In this document: piece after piece, positions 8,963 to 20,009 of the stretch | Position numbering within the stretch: the first letter of the stretch is position 1 | Layout of the letters: every line of letters begins with the position of its first letter | Origin: a virus | Taxonomy: Duplodnaviria > Heunggongvirae > Uroviricota > Caudoviricetes | IMG/VR virus record: IMGVR_UViG_2617270955_000003 | DNA length: 20,009 nt | Reading direction: 5' to 3' (one strand) | Translations under genes and position numbers: made by a program | Notes under the pieces: model-generated | Seen by the model: the letters and a program-made list of their open reading frames with translations, nothing else | Databases searched by the model: none | What the model was told of the DNA's origin: nothing

Positions 8963-9507
8963 AAACGGGAGCCGAAGCTATCCGGGCGCTGGCCACGCAG
9001 CTCCCGGCGTTTCGTCAGAAACTGAATGAGGGCTGGTATCAGGTGCGCATTGCCGGGCGTGATGCAGGCGAAAACGAATTATCTGCCCGTCTTAATGAGC
9101 CGCTGGCAAATGGTGCCGTGATCCACATCGTGCCGCGTCTGGCGGGAGCTAAAAGTGGCGGTGTGTTTCAGGTGGTGCTGGGGGCGGCGCTGATTGCGGT
9201 GGCATGGTGGAACCCTGTGGGCTGGCTGGGTGCCGCGGCTGTATCGGGCATGTATGCGGCAGGGGCCAGTATGATCCTGGGTGGTGTGGCCCAGATGCTG
9301 GCACCGAAAGCCCGGACGCCCACAGCGACCAGCACGGATAACGGTAAGCAGAACACCTATTTCTCATCACTGGATAACATGGTTGCCCAGGGCAATGTTC
9401 TGCCTGTTCTGTACGGTGAAATGCGCGTGGGGTCTCGTGTGGTTTCTCAGGAGATCAGCACGGCAGATGAAGGGGACGGTGGTCAGGTTGTGGTGATTGG
9501 CCGCTGA
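8860..9507 (+). CDS. I: Tail assembly protein I
   Basis: 215 aa; N-terminus MAATHTLPLASPGMARICLYGDLQRFG and C-terminus ...QNTYFSSLDNMVAQGNVLPVLYGEMRVGSRVVSQEISTADEGDGGQVVVIGR match lambda gpI as recalled. Confidence 0.9.
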   Translation: MAATHTLPLASPGMARICLYGDLQRFGHRIDLRVKTGAEAIRALATQLPAFRQKLNEGWYQVRIAGRDAGENELSARLNEPLANGAVIHIVPRLAGAKSGGVFQVVLGAALIAVAWWNPVGWLGAAAVSGMYAAGASMILGGVAQMLAPKARTPTATSTDNGKQNTYFSSLDNMVAQGNVLPVLYGEMRVGSRVVSQEISTADEGDGGQVVVIGR

Positions 9508-9525
9508 TGCAAAATATTTCATGTG

Positions 9526-9550
9526 AAACCGCCTCCGGGCGGTTTTGTCG
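9526..9550 (+). terminator. Stem-loop plus T-rich tract between I and J
   Basis: AAACCGCC-TCCG-GGCGGTTT followed by TGTCGTTT. Confidence 0.45.
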
Positions 9551-9567
9551 TTTATGGAGCATGACGA

Positions 9568-12500
9568 ATGGGCAAAGGAAGCAGTAAGGGGCATACCCCG
9601 CGCGAAGCGAAGGACAACCTGAAATCCACGCAATTACTGAGTGTGATCGATGCCATCAGCGAAGGGCCGATTGAAGGTCCGGTGGATGGATTAAAAAGCG
9701 TGCTGCTGAACAGTACACCGGTGCTGGACAGTGAGGGGAATACCAACATCTCCGGTGTTACGGTGGTGTTCCGGGCAGGTGAGCAGGAGCAGACACCGCC
9801 GGAGGGATTTGAATCCTCCGGTTCCGAGACGGTGCTGGGTACGGAAGTGAAATACGACACGCCGATCACCCGCACCATCACGTCGGCAAACATCGACCGT
9901 CTGCGCTTTACCTTCGGTGTGCAGGCACTGGTGGAAACCACCTCAAAGGGGGACAGGAATCCATCGGAAGTCCGCCTGCTGGTTCAGATACAACGTAACG
10001 GTGGCTGGGTGACGGAAAAAGACATCACCATTAAGGGTAAAACCACCTCACAGTATCTGGCCTCAGTGGTGGTGGATAACCTGCCGCCGCGCCCGTTTAA
10101 TATCCGGATGCGCAGGATGACGCCGGACAGCACCACAGACCAGCTGCAGAACAAAACGCTCTGGTCGTCATACACCGAAATCATCGATGTGAAACAGTGC
10201 TACCCGAACACGGCACTGGTCGGCGTACAGGTGGACTCGGAGCAGTTCGGCAGCCAGCAGGTGAGTCGTAATTATCATCTTCGCGGGCGCATTCTGCAGG
10301 TGCCGTCGAACTATAACCCGCAGACGCGGCAATACAGCGGTATCTGGGACGGAACGTTTAAGCCGGCATACAGCAACAACATGGCCTGGTGTCTGTGGGA
10401 TATGCTGACCCATCCGCGCTACGGCATGGGAAAACGTCTTGGTGCGGCAGATGTGGATAAATGGGCGCTGTATGTCATCGGCCAGTACTGCGACCAGTCG
10501 GTGCCGGACGGCTTTGGCGGCACGGAGCCGCGCATCACCTGTAATGCGTACCTGACCACACAGCGTAAGGCGTGGGATGTGCTCAGTGATTTCTGCTCGG
10601 CGATGCGCTGTATGCCGGTATGGAACGGGCAGACGCTGACGTTCGTGCAGGACCGGCCGTCGGATAATGTGTGGACCTATAACCGCAGTAATGTGGTGAT
10701 GCCGGATGATGGCGCGCCGTTCCGCTACAGTTTCAGCGCCCTGAAGGACCGCCATAATGCCGTTGAGGTGAACTGGACTGACCCGGATAACGGCTGGGAA
10801 ACGGCAACAGAGCTTGTGGAGGACACGCAGGCCATTGCCCGTTATGGTCGTAATGTCACGAAGATGGATGCCTTTGGCTGTACCAGCCGGGGGCAGGCAC
10901 ACCGCGCCGGGCTGTGGCTGATTAAAACGGAGCTGCTGGAAACGCAGACCGTGGACTTCAGCGTGGGCGCAGAAGGGCTTCGCCATGTACCGGGCGATGT
11001 TATTGAAATCTGCGATGATGACTATGCCGGTATCAGCACCGGTGGTCGTGTGCTGGCGGTGAGCAGCCAGACCCGGACGCTGACGCTCGACCGTGAAATC
11101 ACGCTGCCATCCTCCGGCACCACGCTGATAAGCCTGGTTGACGGAAGTGGCAATCCGGTCAGCGTGCAGGTCCAGTCCGTCACCGACGGCGTGAAGGTGA
11201 AAGTGAGCCGGGTTCCTGACGGCGTTGCAGAATACAGCGTGTGGGGGCTGAAGTTGCCGACGTTGCGCCAGCGCCTGTTCCGCTGTGTGAGTATCCGTGA
11301 GAACGACGACGGCACGTATGCCATCACCGCCGTGCAGCATGTACCGGAAAAAGAAGCCATCGTGGATAACGGGGCGCACTTTGACGGCGACCAGAGCGGC
11401 ACGGTGAATGGTGTCACGCCGCCAGCGGTGCAGCACCTGGCCGCAGAAGTCACTGCAGACAGCGGGGAATATCAGGTGCTGGCGCGATGGGACACACCGA
11501 AGGTGGTGAAGGGCGTGAGCTTCCTGCTCCGTCTGACCGTAACAGCGGACGACGGCAGTGAGCGGCTGGTCAGCACGGCCCGGACGACGGAAACCACATA
11601 CCGCTTCAGGCAACTGGCGCTGGGGCGTTACACGCTGACGGTCCGGGCGGTAAATGCGTGGGGGCAGCAGGGCGATCCGGCATCGGTATCGTTCCGGATT
11701 GCGGCACCGGCAGCGCCTGTCACTATTGAACTGATACCAGGGTATTTTCAGATAACAGCGGTCCCGAAACTGGCTGTATATGACCCGACGGTGCAGTTTG
11801 AGTTCTGGTTCTCGGAAAAGCGGATTATCGATATCAGGCAGGTTGAAACCAGCGCGCGTTATCTTGGTACGGCGCTGTACTGGATAGCCGCCAGTAGCAA
11901 TATTAAGCCGGGTTATGATTATTACTTTTATATCCGCAGCGTGAACACCGTTGGTAAATCGGCATTTGTGGAGGCCGTTGGTCGGGCGAGCGATGATGCG
12001 GAAGGTTATCTGAATTTTTATAAAGGGTTGATCAATAAAACGCATCTCGGCAAGGAACTGCTGGAAAACTTTGAGCTGACGGAAGATAACGCCAGCAAAC
12101 TGGAGGAGTTTTCGAAAGAGTGGAAGGACGCCAACGATAAATGGAATGCCATGTGGGGCGTCAAAATTGAGCAGACCAAAGACGGCAAACATTATGTCGC
12201 GGGGCTTGGCCTCAGCATGGAGGATACGGAGGAAGGCAAACTGAGCCAGTTCCTGGTTGCCGCTAACCGTATCGCGTTTATTGACCCGGCAAACGGGAAT
12301 GAAACGCCGATGTTTGTGGCGCAGGGCAACCAGATATTCATGAACGACGTGTTCCTGAAGCGCCTGACGGCCCCCACCATTACCAGCGGCGGTAATCCTC
12401 CGGCATTTTCCCTGACACCGGACGGGCGGCTGACGGCGAAAAATGCCGATATCAGCGGTAACGTGAATGCGAACTCCGGGACGCTCAACAACGTCACGAT

Positions 12501-12963
12501 TAACGAGAACTGCCGGGTTCTGGGAAAACTGTCCGCGAACCAGATTGAAGGCGATCTCGTTAAAACAGTGGGCAAAGCTTTCCCCCGTGACTCCCGGGCA
12601 CCGGAGCGGTGGCCATCAGGGACCATTACCGTCAGGGTTTATGACGATCAGCCGTTTGACCGGCAAATTGTTATTCCGGCTGTGGCATTCAGTGGCGCTA
12701 AGCATGAGAGAGAGCATACTGATATTTACTCCTCATGCCGTCTGATAGTGCGGAAAAACGGTGCTGAAATTTATAACCGTACCGCGCTGGATAATACGCT
12801 GATTTACAGTGGCGTTATTGATATGCCTGCCGGTCACGGTCACATGACGCTGGAGTTTTCGGTGTCAGCATGGCTGGTAAATGGCTGGTATCCCACAGCA
12901 AGTATCAGCGATTTGCTGGTTGTTGTGATGAAGAAAGCCACTGCAGGCATCACGATTAGCTGA
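9568..12963 (+). CDS. J: Central tail fibre / host specificity protein J, with divergent C-terminal receptor-binding region
   Basis: 1131 aa; GGAG RBS 8 nt upstream; N-terminal ~1000 aa match lambda gpJ as recalled, with fibronectin-III-like repeats; last ~145 aa are homologous to but clearly different from lambda. Confidence 0.95.
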
Positions 12964-12982
12964 ATTTTATAACCCAGATACG

Positions 12983-13007
12983 GGCACCAGAAATGGTGCC
13001 TTTTTTA
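12983..13007 (+). terminator. Intrinsic terminator after J
   Basis: GGCACC-AGAAAT-GGTGCC hairpin followed by TTTTTTATT. Confidence 0.6.
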
Positions 13008-13030
13008 TTGCAGAAAAGCGAGAGGTAATT

Positions 13031-13630
13031 ATGCGTAAATTATGTGCTGTTATTCTATCCGCAGTAGTCTGGCTGGTTGCCGCTGGTACGCCAGCGAGCG
13101 CAGCAGAGCATCAGTCCACACTAAGCGCCGGGTATCTTCAGACCCATACTGATATGCCAGGCAGTGATGACCTGAAGGGCATTAACGTGAAATACCGTTA
13201 TGAATTTACGGACACGCTGGGGCTGGTGACGTCATTCAGTTATGCCAATGCCAAAGATGAGCAAAAAACGCATTACAGCGATACCCGCTGGCATGAAGAT
13301 TCAGTGCGTAACCGCTGGTTCAGCATGATGGCGGGGCCATCTGTACGCGTGAATGAATGGTTCAGTGCTTATGCGATGGCAGGTGTGGCTTACAGCCGTG
13401 TTTCGACGTTCTCCGGGGATTATCTCCGCGTAACTGACAACAAGGGGAAAACGCACGATGTGCTGACCGGAAGTGATGACGATCGCCACAGCAACACGTC
13501 TCTGGCGTGGGGAGCTGGCGTGCAGTTTAACCCGACCGAATCCGTGGCCATTGATATTGCTTATGAAGGCTCCGGCAGTGGCGACTGGCGCACTGACGGT
13601 TTCATCGTGGGTGTCGGTTATAAGTTCTGA
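13031..13630 (+). CDS. lom: Lom outer membrane protein (Ail/OmpX/PagC family)
   Basis: 199 aa; signal peptide MRKLCAVILSAVVWLVAAGTPASA; beta-barrel OMP signature with C-terminal ...GFIVGVGYKF; GAGAGG RBS; same position as lambda lom. Confidence 0.95.
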   Translation: MRKLCAVILSAVVWLVAAGTPASAAEHQSTLSAGYLQTHTDMPGSDDLKGINVKYRYEFTDTLGLVTSFSYANAKDEQKTHYSDTRWHEDSVRNRWFSMMAGPSVRVNEWFSAYAMAGVAYSRVSTFSGDYLRVTDNKGKTHDVLTGSDDDRHSNTSLAWGAGVQFNPTESVAIDIAYEGSGSGDWRTDGFIVGVGYKF

Positions 13631-13657
13631 TTAGCCAGGTAACACAGTGTTATGACA

Positions 13658-13683
13658 GCCCGCCGGTTCAGGCGGGCTTTTTT
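13658..13683 (+). terminator. Intrinsic terminator after lom
   Basis: GCCCGCC-GGTTCA-GGCGGGC hairpin followed by TTTTTT; a corresponding hairpin follows lom in lambda as I recall it. Confidence 0.65.
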
Positions 13684-13686
13684 GTG

Positions 13687-14397
13687 CACAGAAAACCCCC
13701 AGCTAGGCTGGGGGTTCCGGAAAGCTTTCAGCTTTAAGCCAGTTATTAAAACCCCTTTTGATTTGTTAAAACACCTTGCGGTCTGGCAACTGCAAGTGTC
13801 AAACAAGAAATCAAAAGGGGGTCCCAATGGGGAACGAAAAGAGCTTAGCGCACACCCGATGGAACTGTAAATATCACATAGTTTTTGCGCCAAAATACCG
13901 AAGACAGGTGTTCTACAGAGAGAAGCGTAGAGCAATAGGCAGTATTTTGAGAAAGCTGTGTGAGTGGAAAAGTGTACGGATTCTGGAAGCTGAATGCTGT
14001 GCAGATCATATCCATATGCTTGTGGAGATCCCGCCCAAAATGAGCGTATCCGGCTTTATGGGATATCTGAAAGGGAAAAGCAGTCTGATGCTTTACGAGC
14101 AGTTTGGTGATTTGAAATTCAAATACAGGAACAGGGAGTTCTGGTGCAGAGGGTACTACGTCGATACGGTGGGTAAGAACACGGCGAAGATACAGGATTA
14201 CATAAAGCACCAGCTTGAAGAGGATAAAATGGGAGAGCAGTTATCGATTCCCTATCCGGGCAGCCCGTTTACGGGCCGTAAGTAACGAAGTTGGATGCAA
14301 ATGTCAGATCGTGTGCGCCTGTTAGGGCGCGGCTGGTAAGAGAGCCTTATAGGCGCATTTGAAAAACCTCCGGCTATGCCGGAGGATATTTATTGTG
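13687..14397 (+). mobile_element. IS200-family insertion sequence (IS200/IS605 family), about 0.7 kb, boundaries approximate
   Basis: Contains an IS200-type TnpA gene; left end carries an 8-bp-stem hairpin (CCCCCAGC-TAG-GCTGGGGG, 13696..13714); element sits where lambda has only about 10 bp between the lom terminator and the stf start; length fits IS200 (about 707 bp). Confidence 0.7.
13827..14285 (+). CDS. tnpA: IS200-family transposase TnpA (HUH single-strand transposase)
   Basis: 152 aa from ATG 13827 (MGNEKSLAHTRWNCKYHIVFAPKYRR...); HUH motif in ...CADHIHMLVEIPP...; the track start at 13776 is an upstream in-frame extension. Confidence 0.9.
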   Translation: MGNEKSLAHTRWNCKYHIVFAPKYRRQVFYREKRRAIGSILRKLCEWKSVRILEAECCADHIHMLVEIPPKMSVSGFMGYLKGKSSLMLYEQFGDLKFKYRNREFWCRGYYVDTVGKNTAKIQDYIKHQLEEDKMGEQLSIPYPGSPFTGRK

Positions 14398-14405
14398 GAG
14401 TGGAT

Positions 14406-16784
14406 ATGGCAGCAGTAAAAATCTCAGGTGTGCTGAAAGATGGTGCGGGAAAACCAATACAGAACTGCACTATTCAACTGAAGGCAAAGCGTAACAGCAC
14501 CACGGTACTGGTGAACACGGTGGCTTCTGAAAATCCGGATGAAGCCGGACGTTACAGCATGGATGTTGAGCATGGTCAGTACAGCGTCACCCTGCTGGTT
14601 GAAGGTTTTCCGCCTTCACATGCCGGGACCATTACCGTCTATGAAGGTTCCAGACCAGGTACGCTGAATGATTTTCTCGGTGCCATGACGGAGGATGATG
14701 TCCGACCGGAGGCACTGCGCCGCTTTGAGCAGATGGTGGAAGAAGCGGCACGCAACGCTGAAGCCGCCTCTCAGAGCGCAGCGGCGGCAAAGAAATCCGA
14801 AACTGCAGCGGCATCATCGAAGAACGCGGCGAAAACCTCAGAAACGAATGCAGCTAACAGCGCACAGGCGGCAGCGACCTCAAAGACTGCATCGGCAAAC
14901 TCCGCGACAGCAGCCAAAAAATCAGAAACCAACGCGAAAAATAGCGAGACAGCCGCAAAGACGAGCGAAACCAACGCAAAGTCCAGCCAGACGGCAGCGA
15001 AAACCAGCGAAACGAATGCCAAAGCCAGTGAAACTGCGGCAAAAAACAGCCAGGTTGCAGCAGCCCAAAGCGAGAGCGCGGCAGCCGGTTCTGCGACTTC
15101 AGCAGCTGGATCAGCAACTGCTGCGGCTAACAGCCGGAAAGCTGCGAAGACGAGTGAAACTAACGCAAAGTCCAGCCAGACGGCAGCGAAGACCAGCGAA
15201 ACGAATGCCAAAGCCAGCGAAACTGCGGCGAAAAACAGTCAGGATGCAGCAGCCCAAAGCGAGAGTGCTGCAGCTGGTTCTGCAAGCGCGGCGGCTGCTT
15301 CTGCCACTGCATCAGCCAACAGTCAAAAAGCAGCAAAAACCAGTGAAACCAATGCAAAGACAAGCGAGACTGCAGCGGCGAACTCGGCGAAAGCATCCGC
15401 TGCAAGCCAGACCGCTGCAAAAGCAAGTGAAGACGCAGCCAGAGAGTATGCAAGCCAGGCAGCAGATCCGTATAAATATGTCTTACAGCCGCTGCCTGAT
15501 GTGTGGATACCGTTTAACGATTCACTGGATATGATTACGGGCTTTTCGCCATCATATAAAAAGATTGTTATTGGTGACGACGAAATAACGATGCCTGGCG
15601 ACAAGATTGTTAAGTTTAAACGTGCATCGAAAGCAACCTATATTAACAAATCTGGTGTGCTGACAGAGGCTGCCATTGATGAGCCACGATTTGAACGTGA
15701 TGGCCTGCTTATTGAGGGGCAAAGAACTAATCTTCTGCTTAATTCAACAAATCCATCTAAATGGAATAAGTCAGGCAATCTGGAACTCACAGAAATATCC
15801 ACGGATTCTTTTAATTTTACTTATGGGAGATTTACTGTAAAAGATACTCTTATTGGTCAGACAAGTGCTATTAATATCGTAACGATTTCTGGCAGTAAAG
15901 GGTTTGATGTCACAGGTGATGAAAAATATGTGACCATTTCATGCCGTGTAAGAAGTGATGTTGAAAATATAAGGTGTCGTTTAAGATTTGAACACCATGA
16001 TGGTTATACTTACACTTTTTTGGGAGATGCTTACCTCAATTTATCAACACTTGTAATTGATAAAACTGGTACTGCTGCAGACCGTATTATTGCAAAGGCT
16101 GTAAAAGATGAGGTTACTGGTTGGATTTTCTATCAGGCTACAATTAATGCACTAGATACAGAGAGCATGATTGGTGCGATGGTTCAATACGCTCCTGTAA
16201 AAGGTTCAGGTACAGCATCTGGAGACTATCTGGATATCGCAACTCCACAAGTGGAAGGTGGATCAAGTGCTTCGTCATTTATTGTAACTGATATAACTGC
16301 AAGCACTCGCGCAAGCGATATGGTGACAGTCCCAATCAAGAATAACCTTTATAATCTTCCTTTTACGGTTCTTTGTGAGGTACATAAGAACTGGTATAAA
16401 ACGCCAAATGCAGCACCGCGTGTTTTTGATACCGGCGGTCATCAAACCGGAGCGGCTATTATTCTTGGCTTCGGTCGTTCAACAGATTACGACGGATTTC
16501 CTTATTGTGATATAGGTTTGGCTAACAGACGGGTAAACGAAAACGCATCGCTTGAAAAAATGGTTATGGGGATGCGTGTAAAGTCAGATCAGTCTACGTG
16601 CTCAGTAAGTAACGGGCGTATATCCAGCGAAAAGAAAGCCACATGGTCCTATATTCAGAACTCCGCAATTATCCGTATTGGAGGCCAGACTACAGCCGGG
16701 TTGCGTCATTTATTTGGTCATGTCAGGAATTTCAGAATATGGCACAAGGCATTGACTGATGCTCAGATGGGGGAGTCAATCTAA
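14406..16784 (+). CDS. stf: Side tail fibre protein (lambda Stf-like N-terminus, repetitive Ala/Ser/Thr shaft, divergent AT-rich C-terminal domain)
   Basis: ATG 14406 gives MAAVKISGVLKDGAGKPIQNCTIQLKAKRNSTT..., matching the lambda Stf N-terminus as recalled; the track start at 14376 falls in the IS200 end region. Confidence 0.9.
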   Translation: MAAVKISGVLKDGAGKPIQNCTIQLKAKRNSTTVLVNTVASENPDEAGRYSMDVEHGQYSVTLLVEGFPPSHAGTITVYEGSRPGTLNDFLGAMTEDDVRPEALRRFEQMVEEAARNAEAASQSAAAAKKSETAAASSKNAAKTSETNAANSAQAAATSKTASANSATAAKKSETNAKNSETAAKTSETNAKSSQTAAKTSETNAKASETAAKNSQVAAAQSESAAAGSATSAAGSATAAANSRKAAKTSETNAKSSQTAAKTSETNAKASETAAKNSQDAAAQSESAAAGSASAAAASATASANSQKAAKTSETNAKTSETAAANSAKASAASQTAAKASEDAAREYASQAADPYKYVLQPLPDVWIPFNDSLDMITGFSPSYKKIVIGDDEITMPGDKIVKFKRASKATYINKSGVLTEAAIDEPRFERDGLLIEGQRTNLLLNSTNPSKWNKSGNLELTEISTDSFNFTYGRFTVKDTLIGQTSAINIVTISGSKGFDVTGDEKYVTISCRVRSDVENIRCRLRFEHHDGYTYTFLGDAYLNLSTLVIDKTGTAADRIIAKAVKDEVTGWIFYQATINALDTESMIGAMVQYAPVKGSGTASGDYLDIATPQVEGGSSASSFIVTDITASTRASDMVTVPIKNNLYNLPFTVLCEVHKNWYKTPNAAPRVFDTGGHQTGAAIILGFGRSTDYDGFPYCDIGLANRRVNENASLEKMVMGMRVKSDQSTCSVSNGRISSEKKATWSYIQNSAIIRIGGQTTAGLRHLFGHVRNFRIWHKALTDAQMGESI
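14953..15283 (+). repeat. Tandem in-frame duplication of about 189 bp (63 codons) in the stf shaft
   Basis: Segments 14953..15094 and 15142..15283 are near-identical at offset 189 bp (...GTCCAGCCAGACGGCAGCGAA.ACCAGCGAAACGAATGCCAAAGCCAG.GAAACTGCGGC...), encoding repeated AAKTSETNAKSSQTAAKTSETNAKASETAAKNSQ. Confidence 0.85.
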
Positions 16785-17065
16785 TGAAAGATTTAACACT
16801 CAAATTTGCAGACAGGGCCGACTTTTCGGCCTTTATGGATAGCATTGGCTATTATGATGACGAGTCGATGCAGGATGATATTCTTATTGACGTGATAGGT
16901 AACGTGTACAAAGAAACCGGAGAACTGACTGAAGATGGCGAACCGGTATGTGTTAAGGAAGATGGATATTATGTAAACGTGCGCATCATTAATGATGCAA
17001 AAAAATCGTCAATATTCGATGAATACGCGGTTGTAGTTGAACATCAACTTCGTGGCTGGATGTGA
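16784..17065 (+). CDS. Hypothetical small acidic protein (93 aa), translationally coupled to stf
   Basis: ATG overlaps the stf stop (TAATG); AT-rich like the stf 3' half; occupies the position where lambda has tfa but does not resemble Tfa. Confidence 0.55.
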   Translation: MKDLTLKFADRADFSAFMDSIGYYDDESMQDDILIDVIGNVYKETGELTEDGEPVCVKEDGYYVNVRIINDAKKSSIFDEYAVVVEHQLRGWM

Positions 17066-17074
17066 GGGAGACAA

Positions 17075-17779
17075 ATGGCTACATCGACAGTAATTCCAGG
17101 AGACATCACCACGTTAAAGGGAGATGTCAGTAAAGCCAAGGAAGATATTTCCTCAATTAACGGAAAAGTATCAACGCTTCAGGCTGATATGACCAGTGCA
17201 AAGCAGGATATCAGCACCAGATACACAAAAACTGAAGTTGATAATAAGCTGAAAAACAAACTGGAAGTGAACGCTCTGGAAAGCGGTCGTTATGGTGGAG
17301 ATTTTTACCCGTTGACTGGCCGTGAAGCGTTTTATTTGTGGGGATTGGGCACGACTACAGCGGCGGCAAACCTTTATCTTAATCCTGACCCCGCAATTTC
17401 GTCTGTGCTGCGGTCAACATCGTCTATCCGCTATAAACATTCAGTAGAGACAATAGATTCAGAGCACGCCGATCTCATTTTCAGGATGCGCCCTGTGTGG
17501 TACAGGTCACAATGCGAAAATGACAGGCGTGACTGGGGATTCTACGGATTGATTGCCGAGGAAGTAGGAGAAATTGCCCCTCAGTTTGTACACTGGCGAC
17601 CAGCTAACGAAGATGATGCACCGGAAGCTATTTCCAGCAATGGCCTTGTTGCCGAAGGTGTAATGTACGAACGTCTGGTTGTTCCACTGATTCACCATAT
17701 CCAGAAGCTGACTGAAAGAGTTGATGAACTTGAGTCAGAATTAAAGTTGTTATCCGTTTCCCGAAGCGATATCGGATAA
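17075..17779 (+). CDS. Tail-fibre-like protein with C-terminal intramolecular-chaperone (peptidase S74-like) domain
   Basis: 234 aa; GGGAG RBS; N-terminal periodic coiled-coil-like segment; C-terminal ...SSIRYKHSVETIDSEHADLIFRMRPVWY...WGFYGLIAEEVGEIAPQFV...NGLVAEGVMYERLVVPLIHHIQKLTERVDELESELK resembles the autoproteolytic chaperone domains of phage fibres and tailspikes. Confidence 0.65.
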   Translation: MATSTVIPGDITTLKGDVSKAKEDISSINGKVSTLQADMTSAKQDISTRYTKTEVDNKLKNKLEVNALESGRYGGDFYPLTGREAFYLWGLGTTTAAANLYLNPDPAISSVLRSTSSIRYKHSVETIDSEHADLIFRMRPVWYRSQCENDRRDWGFYGLIAEEVGEIAPQFVHWRPANEDDAPEAISSNGLVAEGVMYERLVVPLIHHIQKLTERVDELESELKLLSVSRSDIG

Positions 17780-17789
17780 AGGAGGAGTA

Positions 17790-18077
17790 ATGGATATAAG
17801 CCCCTTACTTCATGCACTTTGTGCTGTGGCTGCGCAAACACTGGTTGGTCTTTTTACCGGAAACTGGGCTTACGGAGCGATAGCCGGTTGTACGTTCTTC
17901 ATTGCGCGTGAACACACCCAGGCAGAATATCGCTGGATCGAAATGTTCGGGCATGGCAAGCGAATGAATATGCCGTGGTGGGGCGGTTTTGATCCGCGCG
18001 CGTGGGATGTGACAAGCCTGATGGATTTTGCTGTGCCGGTGGTGGCGTGTCTGCTGATCTGGATGTTGATCCGTTAA
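17790..18077 (+). CDS. Hypothetical small membrane protein (95 aa, 2-3 predicted TM segments)
   Basis: Strong RBS AAGGAGGAG 7 nt upstream; hydrophobic N-terminal and C-terminal segments; last gene before attP. Confidence 0.6.
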   Translation: MDISPLLHALCAVAAQTLVGLFTGNWAYGAIAGCTFFIAREHTQAEYRWIEMFGHGKRMNMPWWGGFDPRAWDVTSLMDFAVPVVACLLIWMLIR

Positions 18078-18084
18078 ATATAAA

Positions 18085-18120
18085 AGCCGCAGTAACTTGC
18101 CATGATAGGATACTGCGGCT
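18085..18120 (+). repeat. Inverted repeat / hairpin downstream of the membrane-protein ORF
   Basis: AGCCGCAGTA ... TACTGCGGCT (10-bp arms, 16-nt loop); no following T-tract, so terminator function is uncertain. Confidence 0.3.
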
Positions 18121-18317
18121 GGCTGGTTAACTTTCGATAGTGCGAGTATTGAATGATTTCCAGCCGTTACTGATTTTATATAACGGCAGTGGAATTATTC
18201 AACACACAGGCAAAACACAGGCAAAACGGAATAAGCTGAGAAAAAAAGCGTGCTTTCCCAATCTGGGGCAAATCACGTCTGAATGACACCTGAAAACAGG
18301 TGGTGGACTCAAGAAGG

Positions 18318-18395
18318 CTTGGAATATTCTTCTTTAATGTTATGTAATTCATTGATTTTTCGTGTACGATTTTAAGACATTTATTCCAAGAAGAA
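18318..18395 (+). promoter_or_regulatory. Candidate integrase arm-type binding sites (P arm): one direct and one inverted CTTGGAATA motif
   Basis: CTTGGAATATTCTTC at 18318..18332 and its inverted relative TTATTCCAAGAAGAA at 18381..18395, upstream of the tRNA-like core. Confidence 0.5.
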
Positions 18396-18429
18396 TTTTT
18401 AACTCTTTGATTTTTCTACTCTGTATCAT

Positions 18430-18491
18430 CGGTCTCGAAAACCGGAGTGGGGGCAACTCCACCGGGGGTTCAAATCCCCCTCTCTCCGCCA
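18430..18491 (+). tRNA. Partial tRNA-Ser(CGA) (serU-like) 3' segment, anticodon stem to CCA; probable att core
   Basis: Anticodon loop CTCGAAA (anticodon CGA), long variable arm, T-arm GGGGG-TTCAAAT-CCCCC, acceptor 3' strand TCTCTCC, discriminator G and CCA at 18489..18491; no matching 5' acceptor/D-arm upstream, so not a complete gene. Confidence 0.75.
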
Positions 18492-18536
18492 AAATTCAAT
18501 CACTTACACATCATTAAGTCAGTGACAAAAATCACA

Positions 18537-18572
18537 CTTGGAATTACTTGGAATATTTTCTTGGAATATTTT
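18537..18572 (+). promoter_or_regulatory. Candidate integrase arm-type binding sites (P' arm): three direct CTTGGAAT(T/A) repeats
   Basis: CTTGGAATTA (18537..18546), CTTGGAATATTTT (18547..18559), CTTGGAATATTTT (18560..18572); they overlap the last about 10 codons of int. Confidence 0.55.
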
Positions 18573-19569
18573 CAGGTAACGGGACATCAAGTGTTGGTGA
18601 AACTTTAACCTTCCTGTCATAGATTAGCACTTGCCCTTCGGTTTTGTGACCAGAGAAAAGTTGCTTATCCCGGCTGCTTCCTTCATAGTCTGAAATTCCT
18701 TTCGCCTTCAGATCATGAAAGGTGAAGTCGGTTAAAATACCTGAAATTTTTCCAGCACGATTTCTTGCATCTACCCACATTTCGTTAAAGCCTTTGTACA
18801 TATATCGGTTGCCGTATTGATTGCTGATCACATAGGCAGATTTTGGTAACTGTTTTGCTTTTTCGATCGCTGCCTGTAATCGTGGACTCCATGCTTTTAT
18901 CTGTTTTTTTCCGGTTTTCCCTTGCTGGATGAATATCCCGTCGTTTCCAATCTGTTCCCATTTCAGCGATAACACATCGGAAACCCTCGCTGCACACAGA
19001 TAGGCAATTTCCATTGCGATAAAAACAGGAAGAGGTGCAACGCTTAATACTGCCTGGTATTCTTTGTCGGTTACATATCGTTCGCGGTTTTTGGCCTTGA
19101 ATTTACTTACACCTGCACATGGGTTAGCCTTCACGTACCCTCGCTCATACCCCCAACTGTAAACACGGGACATACTGCTTTTTTCATGGTTGGCTTGCGT
19201 TTTACTCTGCTCCCCTCTTTTGTCCATGTATCGACGGATGTGTTCTGGTTTTATGGAATCCGCTGGTACCTTACCGAATACGGCAAGCAACTTTTTTTGA
19301 TGTTGCAGATAATCTTTTTGTGTTCTTGGACTAAGGTCACTGTAATAGGCGCTGGCGAGGAATTTTTCCCACAAGCGACCGAATGTCATTGCACGATCGC
19401 GATTATTTACAGTTTCCTCATACTTTTTCCATAAAGCAGCTAAACCATCCTTGATGGCGGTTAGTGTGACAGATTCTCTGGATGTTGGTTTCCATACATA
19501 ACTATATTTATTTGGGTATACATTTGGAGGTAATTTTTCGTGTTCAGGATTTTTCCTTCGTCTTCCCAT
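18544..19569 (-). CDS. int: Tyrosine integrase (lambda Int family)
   Basis: 341 aa; lambda-like arm-binding N-terminus MGRRRKNPEHEKLPPNVY; catalytic-region signatures ...HDLKAKG... and ...GHKTEGQVLIYDRK (candidate Tyr); adjacent to attP; start overlaps the xis-like stop (TGATG). Confidence 0.95.
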   Translation of the reverse strand: MGRRRKNPEHEKLPPNVYPNKYSYVWKPTSRESVTLTAIKDGLAALWKKYEETVNNRDRAMTFGRLWEKFLASAYYSDLSPRTQKDYLQHQKKLLAVFGKVPADSIKPEHIRRYMDKRGEQSKTQANHEKSSMSRVYSWGYERGYVKANPCAGVSKFKAKNRERYVTDKEYQAVLSVAPLPVFIAMEIAYLCAARVSDVLSLKWEQIGNDGIFIQQGKTGKKQIKAWSPRLQAAIEKAKQLPKSAYVISNQYGNRYMYKGFNEMWVDARNRAGKISGILTDFTFHDLKAKGISDYEGSSRDKQLFSGHKTEGQVLIYDRKVKVSPTLDVPLPENIPRKYSK

Positions 19570-19772
19570 CAGATCGCACCAAAATTCGGCTCTACCTCGC
19601 GTGGTGGTAAAGTTTTATTGCAGGTAAATAGATCCCGGCTGACAATCGGTTTGCCACTACGATTGGTATAGAACGGAAGCCCGTTTTCTATTAACCATTT
19701 TCGCTGGTGGCTTGCATATTTGCAGCCCGTTAATATTAGCAATTCATCTTCGGTTAAAAATAAGCTGCTCAT
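19569..19772 (-). CDS. Excisionase-like protein (DUF4224-like small DNA-binding protein)
   Basis: 67 aa, MSSLFLTEDELLILTGCKY...WLIENGLPF...; immediately upstream of and coupled to int, the usual xis position. Confidence 0.7.
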   Translation of the reverse strand: MSSLFLTEDELLILTGCKYASHQRKWLIENGLPFYTNRSGKPIVSRDLFTCNKTLPPREVEPNFGAI

Positions 19773-19789
19773 AGCTATATCTCATAACC

Positions 19790-19815
19790 GCCGCTAACTA
19801 TATACGGTTAGCGGC
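19790..19815 (+). repeat. Perfect 9-bp inverted repeat (GCCGCTAAC-N8-GTTAGCGGC) between the exonuclease stop and the xis-like start
   Basis: Read directly from the sequence; no T-tract on either strand. Confidence 0.5.
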
Positions 19816-19830
19816 AATTAGGGTTGAACA

Positions 19831-20009
19831 TTAAAAATCAGCCTGACTCGGGATCAGTTTTTGCCAGATAGCTGAAACGTATTTTGCCTGGTAACGAGCG
19901 TCATCAAGTGCATTATGGCGCTCACCTTCGAATGGAATAGCCGTTCTGGCATCGAAGTCTATGGCTTTCCCCAGCTCAACGATTGTGCGTACATCGCGAT
20001 CGTTGTAGT
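19831..20009 (-). CDS. DnaQ-like (DEDDh) 3'-5' exonuclease, C-terminal part; 5' end beyond the window
   Basis: Minus-strand frame open from the window edge to the stop at 19831..19833; translation ...DFDARTAIPFEGERHNALDDARYQAKYVSAIWQKL... contains an Exo III-like H-x-A-L-x-D-A motif. Confidence 0.55.
   Translation of the reverse strand, partial: YNDRDVRTIVELGKAIDFDARTAIPFEGERHNALDDARYQAKYVSAIWQKLIPSQADF

Follow-up and report, generated by a model that had tools for sequence, protein, structure and literature searches.

A phage attachment site that probably rebuilds serU with a compensated base pair in the tRNA variable arm

The window analyzed here is the whole 20,009-nucleotide stretch of IMG/VR virus record IMGVR_UViG_2617270955_000003. 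Along it, lambda-type tail genes (tape measure, J, lom and side tail fibre) are followed by a tRNA fragment, an integrase gene and a gene for a DUF4224 protein. The letters at 18430-18491, CGGTCTCGAAAACCGGAGTGGGGGCAACTCCACCGGGGGTTCAAATCCCCCTCTCTCCGCCA, are the last 62 nt of tRNA-Ser(CGA), comprising serU positions 28-76 and the long variable arm. When aligned with the 90-nt serU of Escherichia coli BL21 (L001 1473-1562), which ARAGORN calls as tRNA-Ser cga, they match positions 29-90 without gaps. The features around this fragment are as follows.

18318-18325, plus strand: CTTGGAAT, candidate arm-type Int site of the P arm (exact octamer copy)
18383-18390, minus strand: CTTGGAAT, inverted, candidate arm-type Int site of the P arm (exact octamer copy)
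18430-18491, plus strand: serU 3' fragment, the tDNA part of attP (gap-free BL21 serU alignment, 2 differences)
18430-18448, plus strand: 19-bp block shared by attP and attB, CGGT-CTCGAAA-ACCG-GAGT (attL and attR read in Ecol_244 and EC958)
18434-18440, plus strand: anticodon loop CTCGAAA, presumed 7-bp Int overlap region (between inverted CGGT/ACCG arms; class analogy, PMC4383910)
18447-18462, plus strand: variable-arm hairpin with a 6-bp stem and a GCAA tetraloop (ViennaRNA energies, cloverleaf)
18449, plus strand: variant base G (host A), 5' partner of variable-arm pair 3 (BL21 serU alignment, fold)
18460, plus strand: variant base C (host T), 3' partner of variable-arm pair 3 (BL21 serU alignment, fold)
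18494-18506, plus strand: ATTCAATCACTTA, putative IHF-consensus-like motif directly 3' of the tRNA end (1 mismatch to WATCAANNNNTTR)
18537-18567, plus strand: three tandem copies of CTTGGAAT (at 18537, 18547 and 18560), candidate P'1-P'3 arm-type sites that overlap the int 3' end
18544-19569, minus strand: lambda-family tyrosine integrase, 341 aa (Pfam PF00589, PF22022 and PF14659)
19569-19772, minus strand: DUF4224 protein at the excisionase position (Pfam PF13986)

The fragment contains the anticodon stem-loop, the variable arm, the T arm, the 3' strand of the acceptor stem and CCA. Its first base is base 2 of the anticodon stem, its last bases are CCA, and homology with the host starts exactly at 18430. 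Among the 62 bases, only G18449 and C18460 differ from the common E. coli serU. The original prediction had counted two changes relative to E. coli serU; the gap-free BL21 alignment has exactly two, and the serU string on which that count was based, GAGTAGGGGCAACTCTACC, is correct. Sequencing error was considered as the source of the G-C form and rejected, as this form is seen in more than 1000 independent assemblies. The fragment lacks the complete cloverleaf of a stand-alone tRNA gene. ARAGORN found no tRNA gene in the whole window, and a search of the whole window with Rfam at the gathering score returned no tRNA (RF00005) hit, its sole match being an IS200-type small RNA elsewhere. A low-threshold Rfam scan of the fragment gave irrelevant partial matches only (a plastid 3'UTR family with an antisense tRNA piece, and tmRNA). 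Certain phage records annotate the serU fragment as tRNA-Ser.

Over window positions 18430-20009, int included, the DNA matches the attL side of the EC958 serU prophage at 100% identity, and positions 502-18506 are 99.96% identical to its attR side. This prophage is 41 kb long, and the window matches both of its ends and therefore joins them across attP. Judged by these matches, the window is the EC958 serU prophage in excised (attP) form; EC958 belongs to ST131, and this phage has an HK97-type head and a lambda-type tail. The unsplit attP junction is also present in about 50 complete E. coli genomes, which suggests that these carry tandem or recently active copies. The Rfam match mentioned above is to STnc490, an Hfq-binding small RNA, and is full-length (window 13694-13817, 146 bits). 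There, the matching EC958 prophage has an annotated IS200C transposase, flanked by lom and the side tail fibre gene; the small RNA therefore belongs to an inserted IS200 and not to the phage.

The gene adjacent to the fragment encodes a tyrosine integrase with the PF00589 domain and the central and SAM-like domains. Its alignment to lambda Int structures is full-length and includes the N-terminal MGRRR..LPPN arm-binding region. By tblastn, the integrase is identical to the serU-adjacent integrases of Ecol_244 and noe1104. Its first histidine, second histidine and tyrosine align with the catalytic residues of lambda Int (the R-H-R-H-Y set). Residues 285 to 288 read HDLK instead of HxxR, a lysine replacing the second catalytic arginine of lambda Int (FHDLKAK versus FHELRSL). 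The same lysine is found in all five of the other serU-targeting integrases compared (O157, w264, ST64B, KpF5 and Chris1), and the serU integrase family with this lysine is evidently active in nature. RefSeq labels the 341-aa integrase a frameshifted pseudogene in noe1104 (L003), Ecol_244 (L007) and EC958 (L148); the open reading frame is intact through the catalytic tyrosine, and the longer O157 version differs only in continuing for 18 codons beyond that stop. The DUF4224 protein is, by its position only, a putative excisionase.

Five exact copies of CTTGGAAT are present in the 20-kb window, all of them within 250 bp around the core. By chance, 0.76 copies were expected, and none of 100 shuffles reached five. 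Two of the copies are on the P side, one of them inverted, and three stand in tandem on the P' side. This layout is that of a lambda-like attP with candidate arm-type sites, which Int would presumably bind. ATTCAATCACTTA resembles the IHF consensus and is a putative IHF site. Unrelated serU elements also have a conserved copy of the 18494-18506 motif in their P' arms. The IHF-consensus-like sequence ATTCAAnCACTTA was found 2 to 3 nt past the CCA end in every serU element seen, with any integrase subtype, and the empty E. coli serU site has TATCAATGACTTA where the elements have ATTCAAnCACTTA. The regions compared were window 18494-18506, L001 about 1565-1577, and the P' arms of L004, L008-L016 and L144-L146. 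Either the arms were copied from a host locus, or the "native" downstream region is an old element scar.

Both prophage junctions were read in Ecol_244 and EC958. At attL, the host C lies to the left of the 19-bp block and the phage G..C to its right; at attR, the phage T lies to the left and the host A..T to the right. Because these polymorphisms lie on both sides of the block in attL and attR, strand exchange takes place within 18430-18448, that is, inside the anticodon stem-loop at a resolution of 19 bp. Within this interval, the two halves of the anticodon stem form an inverted repeat around the 7-nt anticodon loop, in which the anticodon CGA occupies 18436-18438. By analogy with other anticodon-centred sites, CTCGAAA is presumed to be the 7-bp overlap of the Int reaction.

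In EC958 and Ecol_244, the 90-nt serU that adjoins int leads from the host 5' part to the phage G..C, and the phage P' arm comes next. Past the tail genes, at the opposite end of the prophage, the order is phage left arm, 62-nt fragment with A..T, host DNA. The same chimeric G..C serU adjoins int in O157:H7 strain F7386, for which the int-side junction only was read. The gene is regenerated beside int, and the host fragment is displaced. A chimeric tRNA with a host 5' part and a phage 3' part had been proposed as a check, and ARAGORN called this gene tRNA-Ser(cga). The contrast between attL with G..C and attR with A..T in EC958 and Ecol_244 supports the earlier proposal that the phage copy joins the functional tRNA after integration; the phage copy would be the working 3' half of serU in lysogens. 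The phage records ev099, mEp332 and SerU-LTIIb end in attR with host genes (an AraC-family regulator and yodB) and are therefore prophage cut-outs. In mEp332 (L142), the displaced attR fragment has an extra change, CCGT for CGGT, which is consistent with decay of an unused copy.

Seryl-tRNA synthetase recognizes its tRNAs mainly by the variable arm. In the window, the stem of this arm is formed by the pairs G18447-C18462, T18448-A18461, G18449-C18460, G18450-C18459, G18451.T18458 and G18452-C18457 and is closed by the GCAA loop at 18453-18456. Both variant bases are partners of pair 3 of this 6-bp stem, which is A-U in BL21 and G-C in the window. The variants are thus partners of one another, and A-U and G-C are both standard pairs. 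ViennaRNA folded three forms of pair 3 into the hairpin, at -7.1 kcal/mol for A-U, -9.1 kcal/mol for G-C and -6.8 kcal/mol for G.U; the hairpin was lost in the A.C form. That the two changes keep the variable-arm stem paired, from A-T to G-C, had been predicted, and both the cloverleaf and the ViennaRNA folds agree with this. ARAGORN called tRNA-Ser(cga) for all four versions of pair 3 (A-U, G-C, G.U and A.C), and the generic Rfam tRNA model gave 57.0 bits to each of the A-T, G-C and G..T genes. These Rfam scores do not discriminate among the alleles, as the variable arm is not part of the model. Exchanging one pair for another with the helix intact should be neutral in effect, and this expectation agrees with the wide spread of G-C. 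The route from A-U to G-C probably led via the tolerated G.U wobble.

Counts of the two alleles in 5426 complete E. coli genomes gave the following results.

attL junction, 1150 of 5426 genomes: 1061 (about 92%) at most one mismatch from the G-C form; 32 at most one mismatch from the A-T form (2 exact)
attR junction, 824 genomes: essentially always A-T; the exact G-C form never
Empty serU site, 3853 genomes: 3776 A-T; up to 77 G-C, at least 30 of them exact (for example, KBN10P04869)

At attR, G-C was seen only in two sister ETEC genomes, each with one additional, unrelated SNP. The half-changed G..T allele was present in one of the 5426 genomes, at an empty site, and the other half-changed allele, A..C, was present in none of these complete genomes. 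Unpaired intermediates are accordingly rare or absent. This rarity reflects the small number of mutation events as much as selection, since recombination always carries the two sites, 11 nt apart, as a unit. In E. coli, the G-C allele goes with the phage arm in the overwhelming majority of cases. In a sample of 120 IMG/VR stretches, G-C was likewise tied to the P' arm of the window phage, and other serU elements with unrelated arms had the same fragment with A-T; one stretch had G..T. The original prediction would fall if the host serU had the same bases as the phage. This is not so in most E. coli, and it is so in a small minority, at up to 77 of the 3853 empty sites.

The G-C allele was also found in other species. 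We scanned one genome per species (GTDB representatives) with a query that specified "not A" at the first variant site. Ten stretches were returned, all of them G..C, and no G..T was found among the species representatives with this query. Two of the stretches are lysogens of the window-type integrase (an E. coli and a Shigella flexneri), and one is a fragment without a tRNA on an Enterobacillus contig. The other seven are full serU genes, from Brenneria (two species), Rosenbergiella, Entomohabitans, a Pluralibacter MAG, Enterobacillus and a record labelled "Vagococcus." The full serU of Enterobacillus adjoins an integrase remnant. No integrase-like open reading frame was found within 4.5 kb downstream of the G-C serU in Brenneria populi, Rosenbergiella, Entomohabitans or Pluralibacter; the second Brenneria locus has about 1 kb of downstream sequence, which is too little for this search, as is that of the Vagococcus-labelled locus. 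Beyond E. coli, G-C thus also exists either as a natural allele or as an old scar. In Enterobacillus tribolii NZ_QRAP01000001.1 (L016 and L017), the full G-C serU and a G-C tRNA fragment lie 2.7 kb apart, both with the same downstream sequence and with a short integrase remnant nearby (83% identical over 48 aa). The appearance of this locus is that of a small island in decay, or of a tandem site.

Other phages carry other versions of the fragment. In the attP of Klebsiella phage KpF5 and in that of Citrobacter phage Chris1, the 62 nt are the same except for A-T at pair 3. In Salmonella phage ST64B, the attP fragment (L144 1801-1862) has ten differences from the E. coli-type fragment, and six of the ten form three compensated pairs, namely, variable-arm pairs 2 and 3 and T-stem pair 2. 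The ST64B attP also has an A at tRNA position 27 that could pair with its own U43, which suggests that this fragment may have descended from a complete foreign tRNA gene. In ST64B-like attR fragments in IMG/VR (L062 and L099), an E. coli-type sequence is the one displaced, and the native Salmonella serU allele is probably of that type. The 77-kb record of Salmonella phage 118970_sal3 contains two phage copies, each with the ST64B-type attP fragment, and the host allele is absent from it.

The explanation that we favor, and hold with high confidence, is that the serU fragment in attP rebuilds the working 3' half of the tRNA, is held to the shape of a tRNA and has been compensated at pair 3. Recombination by the lambda-family integrase would join attP and the host serU within the anticodon stem-loop. 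In the integrated state, the host would supply its own 5' 28 nt of serU, and the phage would supply everything from the anticodon loop through CCA, including G18449-C18460. The original 3' part of the host gene would be displaced to the far prophage end as a dead fragment. The phage segment would be held to a tRNA shape because, in every lysogen, this segment forms the working 3' half of a tRNA gene that exists in a single copy. Rightward of the crossover, 43 nt that recombination does not need are conserved in serU elements with unrelated arms. That they stay tRNA-like despite the unrelated arms argues for constraint through tRNA function, and purifying selection, rather than recent common origin, probably keeps the segment tRNA-like. 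serU can be mutated to the supD suppressor; for this reason, cells may be able to do without the gene, and it may be under weak selection only.

Two differences that fell opposite each other by chance, as unrelated neutral substitutions, could also account for the pair, as could a fragment that is kept only for the homology of Int with attB. Lambda-family Int needs homology in the overlap region, and only two substitution events are involved. Of the 1891 ways to pick two positions in the fragment, 15 hit stem partners, so that two random changes would do so with a chance of 0.8%, or about 0.3% if Watson-Crick pairing must also be restored, and compensation recurs in the three ST64B pairs. The need for homology, moreover, is limited to the 19-bp block, yet 43 more bases up to CCA are identical across unrelated arms. 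We consider this account very improbable.

Where the pair changed is a separate matter, and the change need not have arisen in the phage, because G-C is also found at empty E. coli sites and looks native in other Enterobacterales. It is quite conceivable, and we propose it tentatively, that G-C did not evolve in the phage at all, the att region having been captured from, or having once matched, a host with a native G-C serU, with the allelic variation simply carried along. Full serU genes with G-C that are identical at the other 49 scanned positions exist in the two Brenneria species, Rosenbergiella, Entomohabitans and the Pluralibacter MAG, the G-C of up to 77 empty E. coli sites would fit as well, and the A27 of ST64B that matches U43 suggests ancestry in a complete foreign tRNA gene. 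The G-C sites in other genera, however, share the downstream CTATTCAAnCACTTA motif with the P' arms of the elements and could be old integration scars, and in E. coli, G-C is overwhelmingly a companion of the phage arm. A native origin would also alter only the place of compensation, not the mechanism or the constraint. The direction may instead have been the reverse, with the phage as the donor and the G-C at empty sites as a footprint of past lysogeny, the prophage having been lost by homologous recombination in the 31 bp of identity to the right of C18460 and not by Int excision. Since the crossover lies to the left of 18449, Int excision must restore A-T, and yet there are empty G-C sites with 100% host downstream sequence. 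The reciprocal rare forms exist (A-T at attL in 32 genomes and G-C at attR in 2), and many of the genomes with G-C empty sites look clonal (4.8 to 4.9 Mb, same map position), which implies few independent events. Against this, no junction marker separates a footprint from a standing polymorphism or from import by ordinary recombination, and the G..T of one empty-site genome indicates that point mutation at the native site also happens. We regard such a footprint as possible but rather doubtful. The wider claim that the phage, by passing through serU, leaves the host with a permanently altered tRNA allele, the G-C empty sites (about 2% of E. coli) being footprints of former lysogeny, we consider unlikely; if it were true, phage-borne tRNA 3' halves would donate polymorphism to host tRNAs, and pair 3 would be a marker of prophage history.

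The original prediction invoked selection for a foldable tRNA 3' end. The compensated pair agrees with this; selection on the phage copy is inseparable from inheritance of an already compensated host allele, because G-C is also present at empty and native-looking host serU sites. Under selection and under inheritance alike, it is tRNA function that constrains the fragment.

What the window contains is a very common E. coli prophage in its attP form, present at serU in about one-fifth of complete genomes, including ST131 and O157:H7. In all strains with this prophage, host and phage each contribute a part of the sole tRNA-Ser(CGA) gene, and the variable-arm stem of this chimera is slightly stronger. 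The G-C/A-T pair conveniently distinguishes the regenerated serU from the displaced one, and it possibly traces past lysogeny. The crossover is fixed to a 19-bp interval. Beyond such bookkeeping the importance is small. The mechanism is already known, being the textbook restoration of a tRNA gene by an attP-borne fragment, and the case is real but ordinary. Reiter et al. in 1989 and Williams in 2002 are said to have described tRNA-gene attachment sites of tyrosine-integrase elements. In the literature, we found nothing specific on EC958 and serU or on compensatory changes in attP tRNA fragments.

Elements whose attP carries a tDNA fragment that restores the split tRNA gene have been described, including a class with anticodon-centred attachment sites (Islander database, PMC4383910). 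These class A sites share with the window phage a 3' tDNA fragment in attP that runs from the anticodon stem to the gene end, a gene that is regenerated while the host fragment is displaced, a crossover in the anticodon stem-loop and an adjacent int. The mechanism is the same; the window phage, however, regenerates an allele (G-C for A-U) and not an exact copy. serU itself is a recurrent prophage site in STEC genomes (PMC8767318, PMC7067040). The CP-933U/ST64B-type serU integrases use the same target gene as the window phage and share with its integrase the conserved FHDLKAKGISDYEG...GHKTE..V.VYDRK motif, and the ST64B record describes its own integrase as similar to that of CP-933U. ST64B differs from the window phage in being a different phage type with unrelated arms and with 10 differences in the fragment rather than 2. 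Phage 21 and e14 integrate into icd and carry a replacement 3' end, so that lysogens express a chimeric gene. Like the window phage, they bring a replacement 3' end with substitutions that preserve function relative to the host copy. In phage 21 and e14, the target is protein-coding and the changes are mostly synonymous, whereas in the window phage, the target is an RNA and it is a base pair that is preserved.
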